DNA from: a phage
Reading direction: 5' to 3' (one strand)
DNA: 64,000 bases
Sequence record: PX994957.1
Every line of letters starts with the position of its first letter. The stretch's first letter is position 1. Position numbers and translations under genes: made by a program. This document shows positions 303-40,799 of this stretch, piece after piece. The notes under the pieces are model-generated. The model was given only the letters and a program-made list of their open reading frames with translations. It ran no database searches and had not been told where the DNA came from.

Positions 303-452
303 TTACTGCATGACTGTGATAACTGTCATGATAACACGTTGAATTCCGAACGCAAGAAGACCTCCTGCTACGGCTGGAACAACACCTAAACCCGCCAGTA
401 AAATGCTACCGGATACTAATGCAGCGCTTGTAATACCTATGAATGGACTCAT
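303..452 (-). CDS. 49-aa hydrophobic membrane peptide
   Basis: ATG overlaps gene 52 stop (ATGA); SD GAGGAAA; MSPFIGITSAALVSGSILLAGLGVVPAVAGG; under 60 aa so absent from ORF track. Confidence 0.5.
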   Translation of the reverse strand: MSPFIGITSAALVSGSILLAGLGVVPAVAGGLLAFGIQRVIMTVITVMQ

Positions 453-1928: not shown

Positions 1929-2067
1929 TTAATAGCCAAAACAATGATAAAATTGCTAATACGCCTTGAGCTGTTGCTTGTAAAAATACTGAAGTTTCTC
2001 CAGTTATTACTGTTCCGGCGAATAAAAAGGACCAGCAGAAAAAGGCTATACCATAAACAAATTTCAT
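1915..2067 (-). CDS. 50-aa membrane peptide, possible ac-like small protein
   Basis: ATG 2067 with SD GAGGAAAAT; MKFVYGIAFFCWSFLFAGTVITGETSVFLQ; T4 has small membrane ORFs ac/stp in this interval. Confidence 0.45.
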   Translation of the reverse strand: MKFVYGIAFFCWSFLFAGTVITGETSVFLQATAQGVLAILSLFWLLNEND

Positions 2068-2079
2068 ATTTTCCTCACT

Positions 2080-2095
2080 GGCGTCCGAAGACGCC
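2080..2095 (-). other. RNA stem-loop with UUCG tetraloop immediately 5' of an SD
   Basis: GGCGTC CGAA GACGCC perfect 6-bp stem; no U-tract, abuts SD of downstream ORF. Confidence 0.45.
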
Positions 2096-2154
2096 TTTAG
2101 TTTTAAAATTATTACGATAGAACTGCATCACATGTTCGTTATGGAAATTACTCA

Positions 2155-2613
2155 TTAATATGCCTGCAAAACGAATTTAAAGTTATCAGCCAACATACGG
2201 TTCATTTCTTCAAGTGTTTGATACTCAGAATGATGATTACGAGTAAACGCTAAAGCTAACTGTCCTTTTCCAAATCCCGTCGTCAGAGGTTTCATCTTAG
2301 AAGCAGGCAGATAAAACACTGTGTATGGAACATTGTTATTTGCAATAGTACGTGCAAGCTGAGACCGACGTTGACGAATATGACTTAGAACTGCACTGAA
2401 TCCTTGCTTAGAACGCTGATTACCTACATAAAATCGTGCTGACACACATGGATTACTAAATGGACGACCATCTAATTTACTTACTAAAAAGTAAAATCCA
2501 GGTTTAGATAAAATATCTTTATGCGGAGTTCCCAAAAACCACTCACCGCCCTTGATTGTACCAATAACAGTAGCACCTGCATCATTCAGATCAGTAACAG
2601 TCATATATTTCAT
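2155..2613 (-). CDS. ndd: Ndd nucleoid disruption protein
   Basis: 152 aa from ATG 2613 (SD GAGGAAATTAAT); T4 Ndd is 151 aa; position between denB and 52; track ORF N-terminal 16 codons are read-through. Confidence 0.75.
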
Positions 2614-2673
2614 ATTAATTTCCTCTAAATTATTTTCTACTCCAAGGCCGCATGAATACACACGGCCATTAAA

Positions 2674-2889
2674 TTAATCGTCGCAGTCGACGCTCAATTC
2701 CCAAAACTCTTCTACGGTATAAGTTTCAGTATCATTTTCAATACAGAAACGTTCATTACTGTTATTTGCTAAAGTAGCGTTAACTGTCGGTTTCTCGCTA
2801 GTGCTCTTAAGAGGTGAAATACGAATTAACTGATCACCGTTATCTAAACAGAAAATTTCACCAACTTTTACATCTTTAAAACTTTTCAT
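2674..2889 (-). CDS. hypothetical protein (ndd.x-type)
   Basis: 71 aa; ATG 2889 with SD GAGGTGA. Confidence 0.55.
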   Translation of the reverse strand: MKSFKDVKVGEIFCLDNGDQLIRISPLKSTSEKPTVNATLANNSNERFCIENDTETYTVEEFWELSVDCDD

Positions 2890-3004
2890 AATTCACCTCA
2901 AGGAGTATAAAATCCAAATGCAGTTGTTGACCATCCCATCCAATATGGAAAATTTGCACCAATGTAAAACATAAGAATATAAAACCAACCGCTCAACAAA
3001 TTCA

Positions 3005-3202
3005 TCATTTTACACCATTCCAAATTGTTTCAACTACTGATTTTAAACCATTTTGATAAATATCCATTCCGACTACTGCCATCAAATAGATTCCAACTAC
3101 AACTGAACCTAAGGCGAAAATCAGCATAAAAATAAATAAAGTCGGAAAAATATTATCGAAAAACCATTCAATAAATGTAAAAGCACCGCGTTTACGCTTC
3201 AT
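3005..3202 (-). CDS. 65-aa membrane protein
   Basis: ATG 3202 with SD GAGGAAAATA; hydrophobic core FIFMLIFALGSVVVGIYLMAVVG; track start is TTG read-through. Confidence 0.55.
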   Translation of the reverse strand: MKRKRGAFTFIEWFFDNIFPTLFIFMLIFALGSVVVGIYLMAVVGMDIYQNGLKSVVETIWNGVK

Positions 3203-3209
3203 ATTTTCC

Positions 3210-3323
3210 TCACATAAATCCAAAATAAGCGTTTAACATATCAATCATTAAAACGATTGGGAATATACTCAAAACTATTAGTATTATAACTACATTCCAT
3301 ATAGCTTTAACAATCTTTTTCAT
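3210..3323 (-). CDS. 37-aa hydrophobic peptide
   Basis: ATG 3323 after SD GGAGGAACA directly downstream of early promoter; MKKIVKAIWNVVIILIVLSIFPIVLMIDM. Confidence 0.45.
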   Translation of the reverse strand: MKKIVKAIWNVVIILIVLSIFPIVLMIDMLNAYFGFM

Positions 3324-3351
3324 TTTGTGTTCCTCCGTAGTTGATAGTTGT

Positions 3352-3382
3352 ATAGTACCACAGAGGAACAGTCTTGTAAACA
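3352..3382 (-). promoter_or_regulatory. T-even early promoter
   Basis: GTTTAC (3377-3382), 18-nt spacer, TACTAT (3352-3357); flanked by inverted repeat GTTCCTC/GAGGAAC. Confidence 0.55.
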
Positions 3383-3598
3383 ACTTTTTTAAAAATATTC
3401 GTAATAAATGTGAATACCAACTACTACCGCTGAAACCTGTGCAACCCACCACGCGCAAGCAATAAGTACAGAATTAAAAATTTTCATAATAACCTCATCA
3501 CAAAAGTAAATGTTAAACAAATTAATGGAATACTAATTAACCAAACAAAACACCACCATAATGAACTCATAGTTCAATCTCAACGATTTTCATTTTAC

Positions 3599-3805
3599 TC
3601 AATAATCCGCTAAAAGATCGACGATTGCATCACGAAGACACTTATTCGCAATACGTTTAAGAGCAATTTCAGTTTCTGGAGCATTTTGAATAATCATTGA
3701 ATTCAATTCAGCCTCAGCAAACTGAAGTTCTTTAACTAATTCAGCTTTATATTTTCCTTGCCCTTTCTTAGCTTTTGCTCGTTTTAATTCAGCTGTAGTA
3801 AACAT
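3599..3805 (-). CDS. hypothetical protein (denB-proximal)
   Basis: 68 aa from ATG 3805 with SD GGAGAATAAA; track start is TTG within promoter leader. Confidence 0.55.
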   Translation of the reverse strand: MFTTAELKRAKAKKGQGKYKAELVKELQFAEAELNSMIIQNAPETEIALKRIANKCLRDAIVDLLADY

Positions 3806-3839
3806 TTTATTCTCCAAATCCGTATCAGTTGATAGTTGT

Positions 3840-3869
3840 ATATTACCACAGTCCTTGTGGTATGTAAAC
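3840..3869 (-). promoter_or_regulatory. T-even early promoter
   Basis: GTTTAC (3864-3869), 18-nt spacer, TAATAT (3840-3845); spacer dyad CCACAGTCCTTGTGG. Confidence 0.5.
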
Positions 3870-3884
3870 CGTTTGTGAAAATTT

Positions 3885-4442
3885 TTAAATGGAAAGATAC
3901 CATCCGTTGTAGTTGCTTTTTCTTACAACCTTACGAAGGTCTTCTCTGTCACCGATGAACTTCGGAGTGTACTGGATGACACCTGGATGAATTTCTTTAG
4001 TGTTGAATATAATTATACAGTCAGCGACTTGATGATTTAGAATGGGCCCTAAATTTATTCCAGAACCATATGGATACTCTCCGCTGCATCCCGTTGTTAC
4101 CGAAATCCAACGCGAGTCAGTTTGATGTGTTTTGACTTCTACACGAAGCCCGCAATATTTTGGATGCGCTAAAACATCCCATGCATACGTGTACGGGTCA
4201 TTAACGTCCTCTTGGCCTTTGTTAACATACCCGCTTAGCCAATCTGCTACAAAAAACTCTGCGTACACCGCGATACGGCATCTTTCGATAACTTCTGCTT
4301 TATCCTGGTTCGGGTTTTGTTTTAAAGAGTATCTTGCTGTATCAGCAATTTTGACCTTCATTTCACTAGTCAAATCACTGTTCGATAGGGTAAATGTCGG
4401 AATCTGAAATAGTCTCTGTAAACCCGGATTCGTTTTCTGCAT
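3885..4442 (-). CDS. denB: DenB endonuclease IV
   Basis: 185 aa, equal to T4 DenB length; ATG 4442 with SD AAAGGAAAG; adjacent to rIIB side. Confidence 0.85.
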   Translation of the reverse strand: MQKTNPGLQRLFQIPTFTLSNSDLTSEMKVKIADTARYSLKQNPNQDKAEVIERCRIAVYAEFFVADWLSGYVNKGQEDVNDPYTYAWDVLAHPKYCGLRVEVKTHQTDSRWISVTTGCSGEYPYGSGINLGPILNHQVADCIIIFNTKEIHPGVIQYTPKFIGDREDLRKVVRKSNYNGWYLSI

Positions 4443-4704
4443 TTAGACTTTCCTTTTTACCGCTGAGATAAGCGTTATATACTTTAAGAGTGCCGTAATA
4501 AATTCGGTCATTTTCATCTAAAGACTCACGGTCAAGTTCATCGAGTTCCTTTTTATCCATGACTATAACATCATTGCAATAAAGAAACCCAAGTTTTTTG
4601 TGTCCAAACTCAAATTTATTACAGTACACAATATTAGCGTGATGATTACCATGTAGAGAAATTTCTTTTATGTCGGAATCACCGATATTCATACAATAAA
4701 TCAT
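4375..4704 (-). CDS. hypothetical protein; 3' end overlaps denB start by 68 nt
   Basis: 109 aa; ATG 4704 with SD AAGGTG. Confidence 0.5.
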   Translation of the reverse strand: MIYCMNIGDSDIKEISLHGNHHANIVYCNKFEFGHKKLGFLYCNDVIVMDKKELDELDRESLDENDRIYYGTLKVYNAYLSGKKESLNAENESGFTETISDSDIYPIEQ

Positions 4705-4949: not shown

Positions 4950-4965
4950 AAGGGCCGAAGCCCTT
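4950..4965 (-). other. intercistronic UUCG-loop hairpin abutting rIIB stop
   Basis: AAGGGC CGAA GCCCTT overlapping rIIB stop codon, directly 5' of next SD. Confidence 0.5.
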
Positions 4966-5902
4966 ATTTAAATTGTTCAGTAACGTCTTCAATTACTTCG
5001 TATTGGCAGGTACGCATTTTAGCGTCGTTGTAATCAATCGGAATTGATACTACATCACGAGGATGAACTTTAACTTTTACAACTCGGCTGGTTGAACCAC
5101 CGAAGTGACGAATATAAGATTTAGAACACACATGCAGACCACGAGAACAAGTTTGTGTATCATCGTCATTCACACGAGTACGCGGCATTTTAACTACTTT
5201 ACCAGGACTGTTATCAAAGGTATTTGAGTGACAGTCAAAGTAATTGCTGCGAACTACTTTCCAAGCATAGAAGTAACCATCTTCTGTAATTTCAATATCG
5301 TTTGCTACCAAGAAATCAAAAAGTCGAGATACCGCTTTCTGGCTTGGGTTTTCCAGCAGATTTTCCAAGAACGGAAAATAAACTTCAAAGTTTTCGCCTT
5401 TTTCCATCGAATCAAGAATACGATCAACCAAACCAGACCGCAATTCAATATTTTGATAGAATAAGCTTCCACCTTCAATTCGAACATCGCCGGAAATATA
5501 TTTTTCAACAGCGCGACGAACATTAATTTTTTGTGCCGCTTCTTCCAGCTTATCCGCTACAAGCAGATTGAGAATTTCCTGGAAGTTTGAATGAGTATTA
5601 GGTGTTGCATTATAAGTTACACCATCGACAGTAATCGAAATGAATTTTTTAGATGCATTCCAAATAATGTCAGATTTAGTAACTGGAGCAATAACTGCAT
5701 CGCTATTAACTTTAACTGTAATATCACCGCTAATAGTAACTTTAGAGCGTTTAGCTTCTTCAGCATTTTTCAAAACACGACGGATTGTATCAACCGATAC
5801 ACCTTGCCAATCAGCCAATTCCTGCTGAGTATAATTACCGCTTGAATACAGTTTAACAATTTCAGCTTGTTCGTTTTTGGTCAGGCATTTAATATTGTAC
5901 AT
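4964..5902 (-). CDS. rIIB: RIIB
   Basis: 312 aa, equal to T4 rIIB; immediately downstream of rIIA. Confidence 0.9.
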   Translation of the reverse strand: MYNIKCLTKNEQAEIVKLYSSGNYTQQELADWQGVSVDTIRRVLKNAEEAKRSKVTISGDITVKVNSDAVIAPVTKSDIIWNASKKFISITVDGVTYNATPNTHSNFQEILNLLVADKLEEAAQKINVRRAVEKYISGDVRIEGGSLFYQNIELRSGLVDRILDSMEKGENFEVYFPFLENLLENPSQKAVSRLFDFLVANDIEITEDGYFYAWKVVRSNYFDCHSNTFDNSPGKVVKMPRTRVNDDDTQTCSRGLHVCSKSYIRHFGGSTSRVVKVKVHPRDVVSIPIDYNDAKMRTCQYEVIEDVTEQFK

Positions 5903-29971: not shown

Positions 29972-30121
29972 TCAATTGATGCATTCATATTTAAATTGTA
30001 ACAGTAATAAACCCCACCCTATGATAAGAGTTGGAATCATAGCAGGAACTGTTACGCTATAGTATATACTTATTATAACCATCAAGATTAAAAGCAACAC
30101 TGTTATAATTTTGCTTTTCAT
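29972..30121 (-). CDS. 49-aa membrane peptide
   Basis: ATG overlaps imm stop (ATGA), SD AGAAGGA; MKSKIITVLLLILMVIISIYYSVTVPAMIPTLIIGWGLLLL; absent from ORF track. Confidence 0.4.
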   Translation of the reverse strand: MKSKIITVLLLILMVIISIYYSVTVPAMIPTLIIGWGLLLLQFKYECIN

Positions 30122-30369
30122 TCCTTCTCTCTGATGATAATTACTTGATTTGGTTGTGCGGATTTTTTAGTTTCACCCGCAATTGACCAAATAAATGTAA
30201 TAAACCAACCAATAATTGACCAGTTAAACAGTAAAGATGTGAAAAAGATTCCTACTGTTGATTTTGACCCACGCATCAAGGCGATGAACCATGGAAGCAT
30301 GTATATAATAATAGCCAACACACCTGAAACTAAAACCATAAAAATTGAACCTGCTACTAAAGTTTCCAT
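30118..30369 (-). CDS. imm: Imm superinfection immunity membrane protein
   Basis: 83 aa, equal to T4 Imm; two hydrophobic helices; between 42 and 43. Confidence 0.82.
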   Translation of the reverse strand: METLVAGSIFMVLVSGVLAIIIYMLPWFIALMRGSKSTVGIFFTSLLFNWSIIGWFITFIWSIAGETKKSAQPNQVIIIREKE

Positions 30370-30376
30370 GCTTTCC

Positions 30377-30757
30377 TCACTTAGTCAAATTTTTTACACA
30401 TGAATTATAAGAATTCACTACATACTCCATCGGAGCATTTTTACCAGTACGCCATTGGTAATTATTAGCCCAATTAGCCCAAAGTTCGGCGCAGTAGTTT
30501 TCAATTTTTTCTTCGCGTGTAATTACATCTGAATTACGATATGCTTGAGCAGATTCATCTGGACGAATAGCTTCGTCAAAATTTGCCTGCATTTGTTCTA
30601 CTGTTTGCTTTGGAGCTTCTTTATAACACTTGACATTAGGATTATAAAACTTGCTTGAACAGTTTACAATTTTTCCTACATCAGACTGATTTACTACCGG
30701 TCCTTGAGCCACACAACCAGTAAGACCTAATGCAATAACCAAAATAGCGATTTTCAT
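30377..30757 (-). CDS. lipoprotein (imm.1-type)
   Basis: 126 aa; signal peptide + lipobox MKIAILVIALGLTGC; SD GAGGAAATTATT. Confidence 0.6.
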   Translation of the reverse strand: MKIAILVIALGLTGCVAQGPVVNQSDVGKIVNCSSKFYNPNVKCYKEAPKQTVEQMQANFDEAIRPDESAQAYRNSDVITREEKIENYCAELWANWANNYQWRTGKNAPMEYVVNSYNSCVKNLTK

Positions 30758-39646: not shown

Positions 39647-40662
39647 TGTGTTGCCTCTACATATAACTGATTTGCATATTGAATAAGTGCTTCACGGTCA
39701 GAATCAGTGATGTCTGGAATTGCATTAATGTATTCTTCCATCAACGTCTGAAGAGATTGAACTTCAACTTCTTCACTGTCATCTGACTCGACAAAGTTAT
39801 CAATCTTTGACACAACTCGTAATGAATGCACAACTTTTTCTAGTTCAGATTCGAACTTCGTTAGATTTTTGTCTACTTCAGTTACTATAACACGTACTGA
39901 TAGATTTGTAAAATCTTTATAGTCAATTTTTCCTTTAAATGGATAATGAATTCTACGATGCCAGGTAGTATTGTTTGGAATAAATTCCATTCGTTCTGTT
40001 TCTGTATCAAACATCCAGAACCCACGAGGGTCATTCTCGTCACCTGCAGTTAGTGTCCATGGTGTCCCAATATATCTAACGTTAGCAGCCTCAGAGATAG
40101 TATGGAAGTGACCAGACCACACTTCTTTATAAGTCTTAAGGAAATCAGGTTCAAGACCATGAGATTTCATTCCTTTATAAAAATAAAATCCATTCAGTTC
40201 CCAGTGACCAACACAAAAAGAAGCAGATGAAGTTTTGATGTGTTCAAGAATTTCACCAGTATTTTCTTCACACATCCAAGGAATTAAATCAATTAAACAT
40301 CCGTCAAAATCTACTGTAGTAGGCTTATCATATACTTTAACATTAGGATATTTAGCCAAAAGCTCAGTAGAAGCATTTGGATGCATTACATTTTTGTAGT
40401 GAAGATCGTGATTTCCTACAATAGTATGTAGGGTAATACCAGCATCATCAAGCATTTGAACTATTTCACGAGCAAATTCCATAGTTTTATGCGTGATCGC
40501 TTTTCGCACATCAAAAATATCACCGTATTGAATCCATACCGTAATTCCATTTTTCTTAGAATATTCTATCGCTTGCTTAATTCCATCAATTTGAATACCG
40601 CGAATCCACTCATCATCAGCTTTAACGCCTAAATGCCAATCACCTAAATTTAAAATTTTCAT
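39643..40662 (-). CDS. 47: gp47 recombination nuclease subunit (SbcD/Mre11-like)
   Basis: 339 aa, equal to T4 gp47; phosphoesterase motifs DWH, GDIFD, GNHD. Confidence 0.9.
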   Translation of the reverse strand: MKILNLGDWHLGVKADDEWIRGIQIDGIKQAIEYSKKNGITVWIQYGDIFDVRKAITHKTMEFAREIVQMLDDAGITLHTIVGNHDLHYKNVMHPNASTELLAKYPNVKVYDKPTTVDFDGCLIDLIPWMCEENTGEILEHIKTSSASFCVGHWELNGFYFYKGMKSHGLEPDFLKTYKEVWSGHFHTISEAANVRYIGTPWTLTAGDENDPRGFWMFDTETERMEFIPNNTTWHRRIHYPFKGKIDYKDFTNLSVRVIVTEVDKNLTKFESELEKVVHSLRVVSKIDNFVESDDSEEVEVQSLQTLMEEYINAIPDITDSDREALIQYANQLYVEATQ

Positions 40663-40799
40663 ATATCAAGAACCGTCGTTGAAATGCAAAATAAAATTAT
40701 TGAAATAAACCCATCTGGTGTGCTAAAGAACCCAATCCAACATGCTCTAGTGAATAGATAAAATGCGAGAAAAAGTATCACATATCCAAGAAATATCAT
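40660..40799 (-). CDS. 46-aa hydrophobic peptide (47.1-type)
   Basis: stop overlaps gp47 ATG (ATGA); MIFLGYVILFLAFYLFTRACWIGFFSTPDGFISIILF; absent from ORF track. Confidence 0.4.

Follow-up and report, generated by a model that had tools for sequence, protein, structure and literature searches.

Do the very short open reading frames (ORFs) packed between denB and ndd of a T4-like phage encode proteins and, if so, what might those proteins do? The question arises in a 64,000-nucleotide stretch of phage record PX994957.1 (hereafter the window), a Tequatrovirus (T4-like) genome with 99.8% identity to phage vB_EcoM-G157lw. A preliminary description made from the letters alone had reported runs of tiny ORFs in this interval and had suggested that they may encode membrane-targeted host-modulating factors. 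On the evidence of comparative sequence, the interval holds five protein-coding genes whose peptide sequences are kept by purifying selection, and we are nearly certain that these ORFs are real genes and the orthologues of the ndd.x genes of T4.

Layout of the block and its counterparts in T4

The five ORFs lie back-to-back on the minus strand and are orthologues of ndd.6, ndd.5, ndd.4, a fused ndd.2a and ndd.3, and ndd.2 (table 1). The positions, Shine–Dalgarno sequences and overlapping junctions given in the preliminary description were borne out, all on the minus strand; ndd.6 lies within the range it covered and is absent from its itemised candidates. Strong Shine–Dalgarno sequences precede ndd.4 (GGAGGA), the 65-aa ORF (GAGGA) and ndd.5 (GAGG), and weak ones precede ndd.6 and ndd.2, both of which are frames with a coupling-type overlap to the ORF upstream. 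The ndd.6/ndd.5 junction is an ATGA overlap in which the ndd.6 stop falls on the ndd.5 start, and the junction of the 65-aa ORF with ndd.2 is an ATGATGA overlap in which the ndd.2 start falls on the stop of the 65-aa gene. An additional ATG upstream of ndd.2, at 3008, would give a product of 36 aa; six of 23 relatives have ATA instead.

Table 1. Small genes, early promoters and reference genes in the window
Feature	Position	Strand	Evidence	Peptide
ndd.6 orthologue, 28 aa	3484..3570	-	phrog_8851, E 3e-17	MSSLWWCFVWLISIPLICLTFTFVMRLL
ndd.5 orthologue, 32 aa	3389..3487	-	phrog_5011, E 9e-26	MKIFNSVLIACAWWVAQVSAVVVGIHIYYEYF
ndd.4 orthologue, 37 aa	3210..3323	-	phrog_3098, E 1e-20; Pfam PF26889	MKKIVKAIWNVVIILIVLSIFPIVLMIDMLNAYFGFM
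65-aa gene (T4 "ndd.3" + "ndd.2a")	3005..3202	-	phrog_2401; Pfam DUF7248 (PF23906)	QNGLKSVVETIWNGVK
ndd.2 orthologue, 35 aa	2898..3005	-	phrog_4135, E 2e-24	MNLLSGWFYILMFYIGANFPYWMGWSTTAFGFYTP
T4-type early promoter before ndd.4	3352..3380	-	TTTACA, 17 nt, TG-n-TACTAT (promoter scan)	
Second early promoter copy, upstream of 68-aa ORF and ndd.6/ndd.5	3840..3868	-	TTTACA, 17 nt, TG-n-TAATAT	
68-aa hydrophilic ORF, same early transcription unit	3599..3805	-	phrog_4535	
motA.1 orthologue, 49-aa hydrophobic peptide	303..452	-	T4 annotation; phrog_3487, E 2e-31; hydropathy	
52.1, 48 aa	1782..1928	-	Pfam DUF7396; PHROG match	
ac, acridine-resistance gene, 50 aa	1915..2067	-	annotation; PHROG match	
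49-aa hydrophobic ORF between gene 42 and imm	29972..30121	-	phrog_3610, E 2e-26	
imm	30118..30369			
47.1 orthologue, 46-aa hydrophobic peptide	40659..40799	-	T4 annotation; phrog_6693, E 2e-30	

The hydrophobic, membrane-type character that had been noted for the peptides also holds. Each has a single hydrophobic stretch of ~19–25 residues; the best 19-residue Kyte–Doolittle mean is 2.2–2.9 in four of them, giving a hydrophobic helix of membrane-spanning length, and only 1.17 in Ndd.2, which is borderline. One transmembrane (TM) helix is predicted in Ndd.6 and in Ndd.5, and in Ndd.4 a single TM helix comes after an N-terminus rich in Lys. Ndd.2 is aromatic-rich and has zero charged residues; given its moderate hydrophobicity, this peptide may be interfacial instead of membrane-spanning. 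In the 65-aa protein the N-terminus is basic (MKRKR) and a single TM helix (about residues 20–45) precedes a conserved amphipathic tail with a hydrophobic moment of 0.45–0.50; an AlphaFold2 model (pLDDT 81) is all-helical, with a kinked long helix.

All five peptides match PHROG families (E 3e-17 to 6e-28) and two belong to Pfam families, one of which, PF26889, is found on all database homologues of Ndd.4. The 65-aa protein scores 67.3 bits against PF23906, above the gathering cut-off of 27 (E 1e-18; residues 13–63 on model positions 8–57 of 58). Its layout is that of DUF7248/phrog_2401 relatives, with a single TM helix between a short N-terminus and a GLKS-x-x-E-x-x-W-x-G tail, and it differs from them in no substantive way, the source label "periplasmic protein" being a prediction only. 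A profile search recovered 27 clusters of 25–76-aa relatives with this tail motif.

The ORFs had been taken for overlooked, and this part of the preliminary description does not stand: they escaped the ORF track only because of its length cut-off. They are ndd.2 to ndd.6, known from T4 annotation for decades, annotated in the GenBank/RefSeq records of relatives and represented in PHROGs and Pfam, so that they carry little weight as a discovery. In T4 (NC_000866, T4p270–T4p275), ndd.2, ndd.2a, ndd.3, ndd.4, ndd.5 and ndd.6 occupy the same denB–ndd locus in the same order and on the same strand, with a nucleotide identity of about 95% and peptides that are 90–100% identical; position, strand and order also match the annotations of PP01 and G157lw.

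The comparison yields practical corrections: ndd.2a and ndd.3 are one DUF7248 gene, and more exact start codons can be given for ndd.2 and ndd.4. The T4 reference has separate ndd.3 and ndd.2a genes, unlike the window and 21 of 23 relatives, in which a single 65-codon ORF is present. Two other T4 records (KJ477684 and OL964735) contain a G that is absent from the T4 reference, and the split arises because this one G is missing there; on the sequences compared, it is a property of the reference record and not of the family. For ndd.4, the T4 annotation gives 42 aa, whereas the start with the strong Shine–Dalgarno sequence, common to 23 of 23 relatives, gives 37 aa. Database records name the products "outer membrane," "periplasmic" and "naphthalene dioxygenase," and none of these names is supported. 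Inspection of the five peptides revealed neither a lipobox nor a mature domain after the helix, and because the peptides are 28–65 aa and essentially one hydrophobic helix each, they do not fit the outer-membrane and periplasmic labels, which are legacy localisation predictions.

Evidence for coding

Chance open frames in AT-rich noncoding DNA, whether leader or spacer, would be one way to account for the block, given that the ORFs are very short and that published LC-MS of T4-infected cells detected none of the five peptides, tiny hydrophobic peptides being hard to detect by this method. We rejected this reading, to which we assign almost no probability, on the basis of a shuffle test, frame conservation and the codon-position pattern; the comparative data already refute it. 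ATG-initiated ORFs of at least 28 codons number five and cover 84.5% of 711 nt, whereas 2000 dinucleotide-preserving shuffles contain a mean of 1.6 such ORFs with 25% coverage, which places the observed arrangement at P about 0.001. Frame conservation in related phages was the check proposed in the preliminary description, and the frames are clearly conserved: among the sampled Tequatrovirus loci, ndd.5 and ndd.4 are intact in 23 of 23, and ndd.6, the 65-aa gene and ndd.2 in 21 of 23 each.

The pattern of substitution points the same way. In the pooled alignments 82 of 133 variable sites are at the third codon position, and dN/dS is 0.16 in frame compared with 0.95 and 1.24 in the two other sense frames. 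Apart from the predicted frame, the third-position excess is seen in just one frame, the antisense one with the same third positions. Coding in that antisense frame was considered and rejected: its dN/dS is similar (0.21), but the plus strand has only short TTG-start ORFs. A structured RNA was also rejected, as Rfam gave no match at E ≤ 1 over positions 2000–4500. Taken singly, ndd.5 has 3/2/11 variable sites at the first, second and third positions (dN/dS 0.16), the 65-aa gene 8/5/28 (0.14) and ndd.2 6/3/14 (0.15). Within-genus dN/dS is 0.22 for ndd.6, with two degenerate copies left out, and its 12 variable sites are mostly at the first position. The most conserved gene of the block is ndd.4, with six of 114 sites variable within the genus; these changes are too few to judge, and the per-gene range of 0.14–0.22 covers the other four genes.

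Because the within-genus codon-position signal is slight for ndd.4 and ndd.6, the coding case for these two genes rests mainly on comparisons across genera, which for ndd.6 amount to a single pair. Four of the five genes have homologues of the same length at the denB–ndd locus of other genera, in which length, start and specific residues are kept and pN is well below pS. A 28-aa homologue of ndd.6 is present in Mosigvirus TU01 (pN 0.27 vs. pS 0.54), and homologues of ndd.4 occur in Gaprivervirus, Dhakavirus and phages of Enterobacter and Klebsiella (pN 0.04–0.38 vs. pS 0.42–1.09). The ndd.2 homologues of Klebsiella and Enterobacter phages encode 35 and 39 aa, respectively, and both contain the motif G-x-N-x-PYW-[LM]-G. 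Ndd.5 is confined to Tequatrovirus (491 records), with no homologue outside this genus. Sequence alone had been held insufficient to confirm such short ORFs in AT-rich DNA; this was too pessimistic, as comparative sequence confirms coding here.

The locus is also subject to change. Its gene content differs among genera, and natural disruptions occur within it in T2, sb4, slur04 and EC121. An IMG/VR scan with Ndd recovered only five near-identical loci, and a word-indexed search of 5.8 billion proteins with the 65-aa protein and Ndd.4 returned proteins of T4-like phages only, with no bacterial or host homologue.

Early promoters, variable cassettes and other small ORFs

The genes ndd.6–ndd.5–ndd.4–(ndd.3+ndd.2a)–ndd.2 form a cluster within one early minus-strand transcription unit, which two sigma-70-type early promoters drive and in which some genes are translationally coupled through the ATGA and ATGATGA junctions. 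The promoter before ndd.4 lies inside a 48-nt repeat copy (3339–3386; repeat family D1, three copies). Both promoters fit the consensus TTTACW-N17-TAYWAT published for the promoter-early-stem-loop (PeSL) elements of the PST/T4 phage pair, in a study that takes the denB–ndd locus itself as a PeSL example (Comeau 2014, PMC4122927). As in the PeSL cassettes described from hyperplastic regions of T4-type phages (Arbiol 2010; Comeau 2014), the promoters here flank small ORFs that vary between close relatives. Unlike those cassettes, however, both copies in the interval have a weak stem-loop half: the hairpins upstream of the two promoters have energies of -6.4 and -4.2 kcal/mol, which are not significant (z -1.2 and -0.8). 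A strong hairpin is found only at the repeat/promoter copy at 216–298 (promoter 216–244; -17.6 kcal/mol, z -4.3).

In contrast to the five hydrophobic ORFs, which are stable within the genus, two ORFs upstream of ndd.6, of 207 and 264 nt, are the variable cassettes. The 68-aa ORF between ndd.6 and denB is present in the window phage and missing from T4, is present or absent among close relatives and has 86.5% nucleotide identity to its counterpart in Gaprivervirus VR26, compared with 54–70% for the neighbouring genes; its behaviour is that of a variable cassette.

Transcripts of ndd.2 to ndd.6 are classed as "early" in T4 (PMC9697503, Table S2); a literature search found no ribosome-profiling study of T4. 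In a CRISPRi-ART translational knock-down of T4, ndd.1 to ndd.6 were scored "Not fit," meaning that infectivity was not lost, in an assay of limited sensitivity in which 13 known essential T4 genes were likewise "Not fit" (PMC11879866). The genes ndd.2 to ndd.6 are dispensable in laboratory hosts, in keeping with an accessory status. They are unmentioned in the anti-defence and transposon screens examined; one toxicity screen employed ndd merely as a control.

Four further sites listed in the preliminary description (303–452, 1782–2067, 29972–30121 and 40660–40799) likewise proved to hold real ORFs with PHROG matches. The 52.1 and ac ORFs at the second of these overlap. At the third, the start of the 49-aa ORF overlaps the stop of imm (ATGA); T4 has an intact homologue of this 49-codon ORF beside imm, and nothing is annotated there in the T4 RefSeq record.

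Possible functions of the peptides

Searches by family gave no direct indication of function, as the peptides have no match in NCBIfam and match in Pfam only families without an assigned function. The only PADLOC hit paired Ndd.4 with KwaA, the membrane protein of Kiwa (E 0.0086, 13.7 bits); it is insignificant and was rejected as hydrophobic-segment noise. We propose that each product would be a single α-helical membrane-spanning peptide that enters the host inner membrane in the first minutes of infection. The basic N-termini of Ndd.4 and the 65-aa protein suggest an N-in/C-out orientation, which would place the conserved amphipathic tail of the latter (NGLKSVV-x-x-IWNG) on the periplasmic face; both this topology and membrane insertion are suggested by hydropathy and charge. 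Through helix–helix or tail contacts, the peptides might bind larger inner-membrane proteins of the host, of a resident prophage or defence system, or of a superinfecting phage, and might thereby modulate exclusion, counter-defence or the functions of the membrane. As such they would be accessory host-range or fitness genes outside the core lytic programme. We advance the specific binding of inner-membrane proteins tentatively, as somewhat less than an even bet; the gene-cluster identity and this mechanism, taken together, we regard as fairly probable.

The model for the proposed action is a set of bacterial regulators, AcrZ, MgrB, MgtS, SgrT and KdpF, which have fewer than ~70 aa and a single TM helix and act by binding a larger membrane protein. 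The ndd.x peptides are similarly small and single-helix, but they are not homologous to these regulators and their binding partner is hypothetical. Polar or helix-breaking residues in or beside the TM segments are conserved across genera, for example SIFP and MID in Ndd.4, SIP-x-IC and a C-terminal R in Ndd.6, N-x-PYW-x-G in Ndd.2 and the DUF7248 tail motif, which argues for specificity rather than generic hydrophobicity. Within T4, the 83-aa superinfection-immunity protein Imm and the acridine-sensitivity protein Ac, of about 50 aa, resemble the ndd.x peptides in being early, small, hydrophobic and non-essential, and both genes are present in the window. Neither has detectable sequence similarity to the ndd.x peptides, from which they are separated in PHROGs, and Imm differs further in having two TM segments.

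A rival reading would make the peptides superinfection-exclusion or anti-rival-phage factors that block DNA entry or channel formation by later phages at the inner membrane, as T4 Imm does, acting alone or as co-translated pairs (ndd.6 with ndd.5; the 65-aa protein with ndd.2). We consider this unlikely, albeit credible. Early expression, membrane-type sequence and dispensability in single infections are all in keeping with it, as is the direct translational coupling of another small hydrophobic ORF (29972–30121) to imm; yet the peptides have no sequence similarity to Imm or Sp, and no such phenotype has been mapped to the interval in the literature examined. Four tape-measure-like proteins (820–976 aa) contain tandem "ETVWNGIK" repeats, whose single units the tail of the 65-aa protein resembles, but this likeness is a 15-residue amphipathic motif scored over 5–10 repeats and may be convergent. 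Membrane-damaging peptides of the type I toxin or holin-like kind, which would depolarise or permeabilise the inner membrane for host shut-off, are a distinctly less attractive explanation and one that we doubt. Hok, TisB, Ldr and Ibs are small hydrophobic toxins that the ndd.x peptides resemble in size and hydrophobicity, and among their neighbours are ndd, denB and stp, whose products attack host functions or trigger them. However, the conserved polar and proline motifs and the extramembrane tail point to specific contacts instead of bulk perturbation, fitness is unchanged on knock-down and the peptides are made early, when T4 still requires an energised host membrane. Rfam revealed no antitoxin RNA in the region 2000–4500.

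It is also conceivable, though very improbable, that only the act of translation matters, with ribosomes covering the early transcript or coupling translation to the downstream ndd.1 and ndd, and that the peptides have no function. The tight packing and overlapping stop/start junctions upstream of ndd would suit such a role, as would the absence of a knock-down phenotype and of a terminator in the single early unit before 298–277. Nevertheless, purifying selection acts on the amino acids (dN/dS 0.14–0.22), and even between genera with saturated synonymous sites particular residues have been kept, something that a role of position alone would not achieve; this reading is disfavoured.

Returning to specific binding of inner-membrane proteins, the ndd.x products are conserved micro-proteins of the best-studied phage, and purifying selection acts on them across several genera. 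Being early, membrane-type and dispensable in the laboratory, yet selected, they stand out as candidates for roles in host range, exclusion or counter-defence that show only on natural hosts. An improbable extension is that the block is an early membrane toolkit in which each of the five peptides neutralises a different membrane-embedded opponent and the periplasmic DUF7248 tail mimics a tape-measure repeat unit. If so, the tail would interfere either with the channel through which superinfecting phages pass DNA across the inner membrane or with an abortive-infection effector anchored in the membrane, and the peptides would represent a new class of exclusion or anti-defence factors, peptide-sized and working inside the membrane.

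Gene order and identity of the small ORFs

Window 2600–3900 is 99.8% identical to Escherichia phage vB_EcoM-G157lw, and 511 phage records, nearly all of them Tequatrovirus (T4-like), match it at 80% identity or above. Laying the annotation of G157lw, PP01 and T4 over the window gives the gene order tabulated below. The preliminary description had pointed to runs of tiny hydrophobic ORFs between denB and ndd and at several other sites, and the ORFs of 28–65 codons, their ATGA and ATGATGA junctions and their hydrophobic products are all found as claimed. When the 711-nt block was shuffled 2000 times with dinucleotides preserved and ATG ORFs of at least 28 codons were counted, mean ORF coverage was 25% versus 84.5% observed (P ~0.001), and four hydrophobic ORFs were attained in just 0.05% of shuffles; the observation is thus confirmed. 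Only the wording that the ORF track missed them misleads, because they are annotated in T4 and many relatives; the five ORFs and the other listed sites are already catalogued and not new. The Shine–Dalgarno sequences also reported are strong upstream of ndd.4 (GGAGGA), the 65-codon ORF (GAGGA) and ndd.5 (GAGG), as they are for ndd.1 (GAGGTGA), but weak for ndd.6 and ndd.2, both of which overlap the upstream ORF in coupling-type fashion. The plus strand of the region holds nothing beyond short TTG-start ORFs, and an Rfam search of the region matched no family.

Features of the window, with frame integrity and variable sites among 23 Tequatrovirus sequences (gene rows from motA.1 to rIIB: overlaid annotation; "listed", site outside denB–ndd also named in the preliminary description)
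Feature	Position	Strand	Intact	Exceptions	Variable sites, codon positions 1/2/3	Remark
Terminator	298–277					first strong one after the promoters
motA.1	303–452	−				listed
gene 52	449–1777	−
52.1	1782–1928	−				listed
ac	1915–2067	−				listed
stp	2075–2155	−
ndd	2155–2613	−
ndd.1	2674–2889	−			3/6/24
ndd.2	2898–3005/3008	−	21/23	slur04, EC121 (frameshifts)	7/4/14
65-codon ORF	3005–3202	−	21/23	T4 reference, T2	8/5/28	T4 ndd.3 + ndd.2a
ndd.4	3210–3323	−	23/23	none
Promoter	3380–3352	−
ndd.5	3389–3487	−	23/23	none	3/2/11
ndd.6	3484–3570	−	21/23	sb4 (nonsense); one IMG/VR contig (2-nt insertion near end)
68-codon ORF	3599–3805	−				hydrophilic; not in T4
Promoter	3868–3840	−
denB	3885–4442	−
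rIIB	4964–5902	−
49-codon ORF	29972–30121	−				listed
imm.1	30377–30757	−				126 aa
47.1	40659–40799	−				T4 annotation; listed

Coding status of the five ORFs

Frame conservation in related phages, which the preliminary description had proposed as a check, was borne out when the ndd.6-to-ndd block from 22 Tequatrovirus loci (93–99.8% identical) was aligned with the window: each frame is intact in 21–23 of the 23 sequences. The predicted frame has a pooled dN/dS of 0.16; the two other sense frames give 0.95 and 1.24. ndd.4 gives no within-genus codon signal because only 6 of its 114 sites vary (5%, the lowest density in the block, against 11–22% elsewhere, intergenic promoter included). The variable sites of ndd.6 are in excess at the first codon position, owing to the degenerate sb4 copy and to Leu/Ile/Val exchanges, and its dN/dS is 0.22 once the two damaged copies are left out. 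In vB_EcoM-fFiEco06 (locus L016, 641–900), the adjacent ndd.1 is split into two annotated ORFs by an internal duplication of ~48 nt.

Homologues from Gaprivervirus, Dhakavirus, Mosigvirus, and Enterobacter and Klebsiella phages, all located between denB and ndd, close the gaps in the within-genus data. Ndd.4 homologues in Gaprivervirus VR26, Dhakavirus KIT01, Enterobacter phage MY742 and Klebsiella phage Biddle_MM4 keep MKK-x-x-KAIWN, VLSIFP and MID, with pN of 0.04–0.38 versus pS of 0.42–1.09. The Ndd.6 homologue of Mosigvirus TU01 (28 aa, MSSKMWIGIWLLSIPMICIIFSIVLRYL) agrees in start, in length and in being coupled through ATGA to the ORF upstream, and Ndd.2 homologues of 35 aa in the Klebsiella phage and 39 aa in the Enterobacter phage retain G-x-N-x-PYW-[LM]-G; Ndd.5 is the sole member of the five restricted to Tequatrovirus. 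From these comparisons we conclude that each of the five ORFs is a real protein-coding gene, with support that is strongest for the 65-codon gene, ndd.2, ndd.4 and ndd.5 and thinner but adequate for ndd.6. Between genera, ndd.4 is the best conserved gene of the locus (70% DNA identity to VR26; denB and ndd, 54–64%). The TU01 Ndd.6 homologue (L026 1801–1887) is unannotated and the Biddle_MM4 Ndd.2 homologue (L027 1801–1908) is annotated in the wrong frame, and spurious product names ("naphthalene 1,2-dioxygenase", "outer membrane protein", "putative baseplate wedge subunit", "DnaB-like helicase") have spread to the tiny ORFs and their neighbors.

The 65-residue DUF7248 protein

The product of the 65-codon gene matches Pfam DUF7248 across almost its full length, and among 1.84 billion representative proteins a profile search yielded 27 related clusters at E <1e-3, including proteins of the T4-like Serratia phages CHI14, X20 and LC53 and of Kosakonia phage Kc304. 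Most clusters consist of proteins of 25–76 aa that have a single TM helix and whose tail reads [EQ]-x-GLKS-[VI]-[VI]-E-x-[IV]-W-[NE]-G. The gene order is rIIA-rIIB-denB-DUF7248-ndd on one T4-like metagenomic contig, and another contig carries the gene in other genomic surroundings. AlphaFold2 predicts two helices, one at residues 3–17 and a long one at 19–64, with a kink at Pro20 (pLDDT 81); the final 18–20 residues, the most conserved part of the family, are amphipathic (hydrophobic moment 0.45–0.50). The conserved tail (ETIWNGVK) is matched by 5–10 tandem repeats, e.g., "ETVWNGIKSFF", in four tape-measure-like proteins of 820–976 aa (P0011, P0014, P0020, P0026), which may reflect motif-level convergence between amphipathic helices. 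In Shigella phage Sf25, gp120 (P0007) naturally joins residues 1–31 of Ndd.4 in frame to the last 31 of the DUF7248 protein and so bears PF26889 and PF23906 together.

In the T4 reference (L003, NC_000866, 3933–4149), one G is absent in codon 2/3 of the gene (ATGAA-CGT versus ATGAAGCGT). Since the G is present and the ORF intact in T4 records OL964735 (L030) and KJ477684 (L031), T4 "ndd.3", which is read out of frame, and "ndd.2a", which begins at an internal ATG, look like artefacts of this one-base gap, itself an error of sequencing or else a mutation particular to that stock. Two T2 records carry different nonsense mutations, LC348380 (L014) and MH751506 (L032), at codon 33 (TCA>TAA) and codon 45 (GGA>TGA), which could be independent losses in laboratory stocks or sequencing errors.

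Expression, and possible cassette exchange and role

Two putative promoters, which have an extended −10 element and belong to a 48-nt repeat that occurs in three copies, match the T4/PST early-promoter consensus TTTACW-N17-TAYWAT for promoter-early-stem-loop (PeSL) elements (PMC4122927); neither has a convincing stem-loop half. No strong terminator intervenes before 298–277, which places the peptides on the same early transcripts as ndd, stp, ac, 52.1 and gene 52. Wolfram-Schauerte et al. (2022) classed the T4 transcripts of ndd.2, 2a, 3, 4, 5 and 6 as early and detected none of the ndd.2–ndd.6 proteins by LC-MS, giving the 5-kDa Ndd.4 (P39249) as a protein probably missed owing to its size (PMC9697503). 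CRISPRi-ART scored T4 ndd.1 to ndd.6, ndd, stp, ac and denB all as "Not fit", that is, infectivity was unreduced on translational knock-down, in an assay that misses some essential genes (PMC11879866).

The locus has been named as an example of PeSL-associated gene exchange (Comeau et al. 2014; PMC4122927). The 68-aa hydrophilic ORF shares 86.5% DNA identity with its copy in Gaprivervirus VR26 (L023 1178–1384), versus 54–70% for its neighbors, and within Tequatrovirus it is present or absent, by itself or with a 264-nt ORF, a pattern suggesting that it is a cassette flanked by promoters and exchanged recently. Because ndd.5 and ndd.6 are intact, though unannotated, in Yersinia phage PST (L011, ~1399–1580), the difference between PST and T4 at this locus looks like an ORF268/269 insertion rather than a replacement of ndd genes.

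By hydropathy, each of the five peptides is essentially a single hydrophobic helix, and the basic N-termini of Ndd.4 (MKK..K) and the 65-aa protein (MKRKR) suggest, under the positive-inside rule, an N-in/C-out topology. Less likely readings are superinfection exclusion specifically, membrane-damaging toxins and, at lower odds still, translation-only roles; chance ORFs are refuted by the comparisons above. The best fit, we infer, is that the peptides would have specific larger membrane proteins as binding partners, whether of the host, of a prophage or defense system, or of a competing phage, and so may serve as accessory host-range, exclusion or counter-defense factors. Specific binding and an accessory role are favored by early synthesis, by single TM helices, by the conservation of polar and proline motifs and not just of hydrophobicity, by purifying selection, by dispensability on laboratory hosts, and by a location in a variable region surrounded by genes of host takeover or related to exclusion (rII, denB, ndd, stp and ac). 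For research on phage micro-proteins the five genes are of moderate interest as targets, and of low interest as a discovery. Nothing in the peptide sequences supports the database labels "outer membrane protein" and "periplasmic protein". A weak match of Ndd.4 residues 2–29 to PADLOC KwaA, the membrane protein of the Kiwa defense system (E 0.0086, 13.7 bits), most probably reflects noise from the hydrophobic segment.

The 49-codon hydrophobic ORF, whose ATG overlaps the imm stop, belongs to phrog_3610 and hence is not new. Its homologue is intact in T4 (L033 821–973), where RefSeq annotates nothing between gene 42 and imm; the ORF is conserved, and its translation is coupled to that of the superinfection-immunity gene imm. 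Adjoining imm and this small ORF is an imm.1 orthologue, spuriously named "iduronate sulfatase" in database records, which begins MKIAILVIALGLTGC, a start resembling a lipobox-bearing lipoprotein signal peptide.
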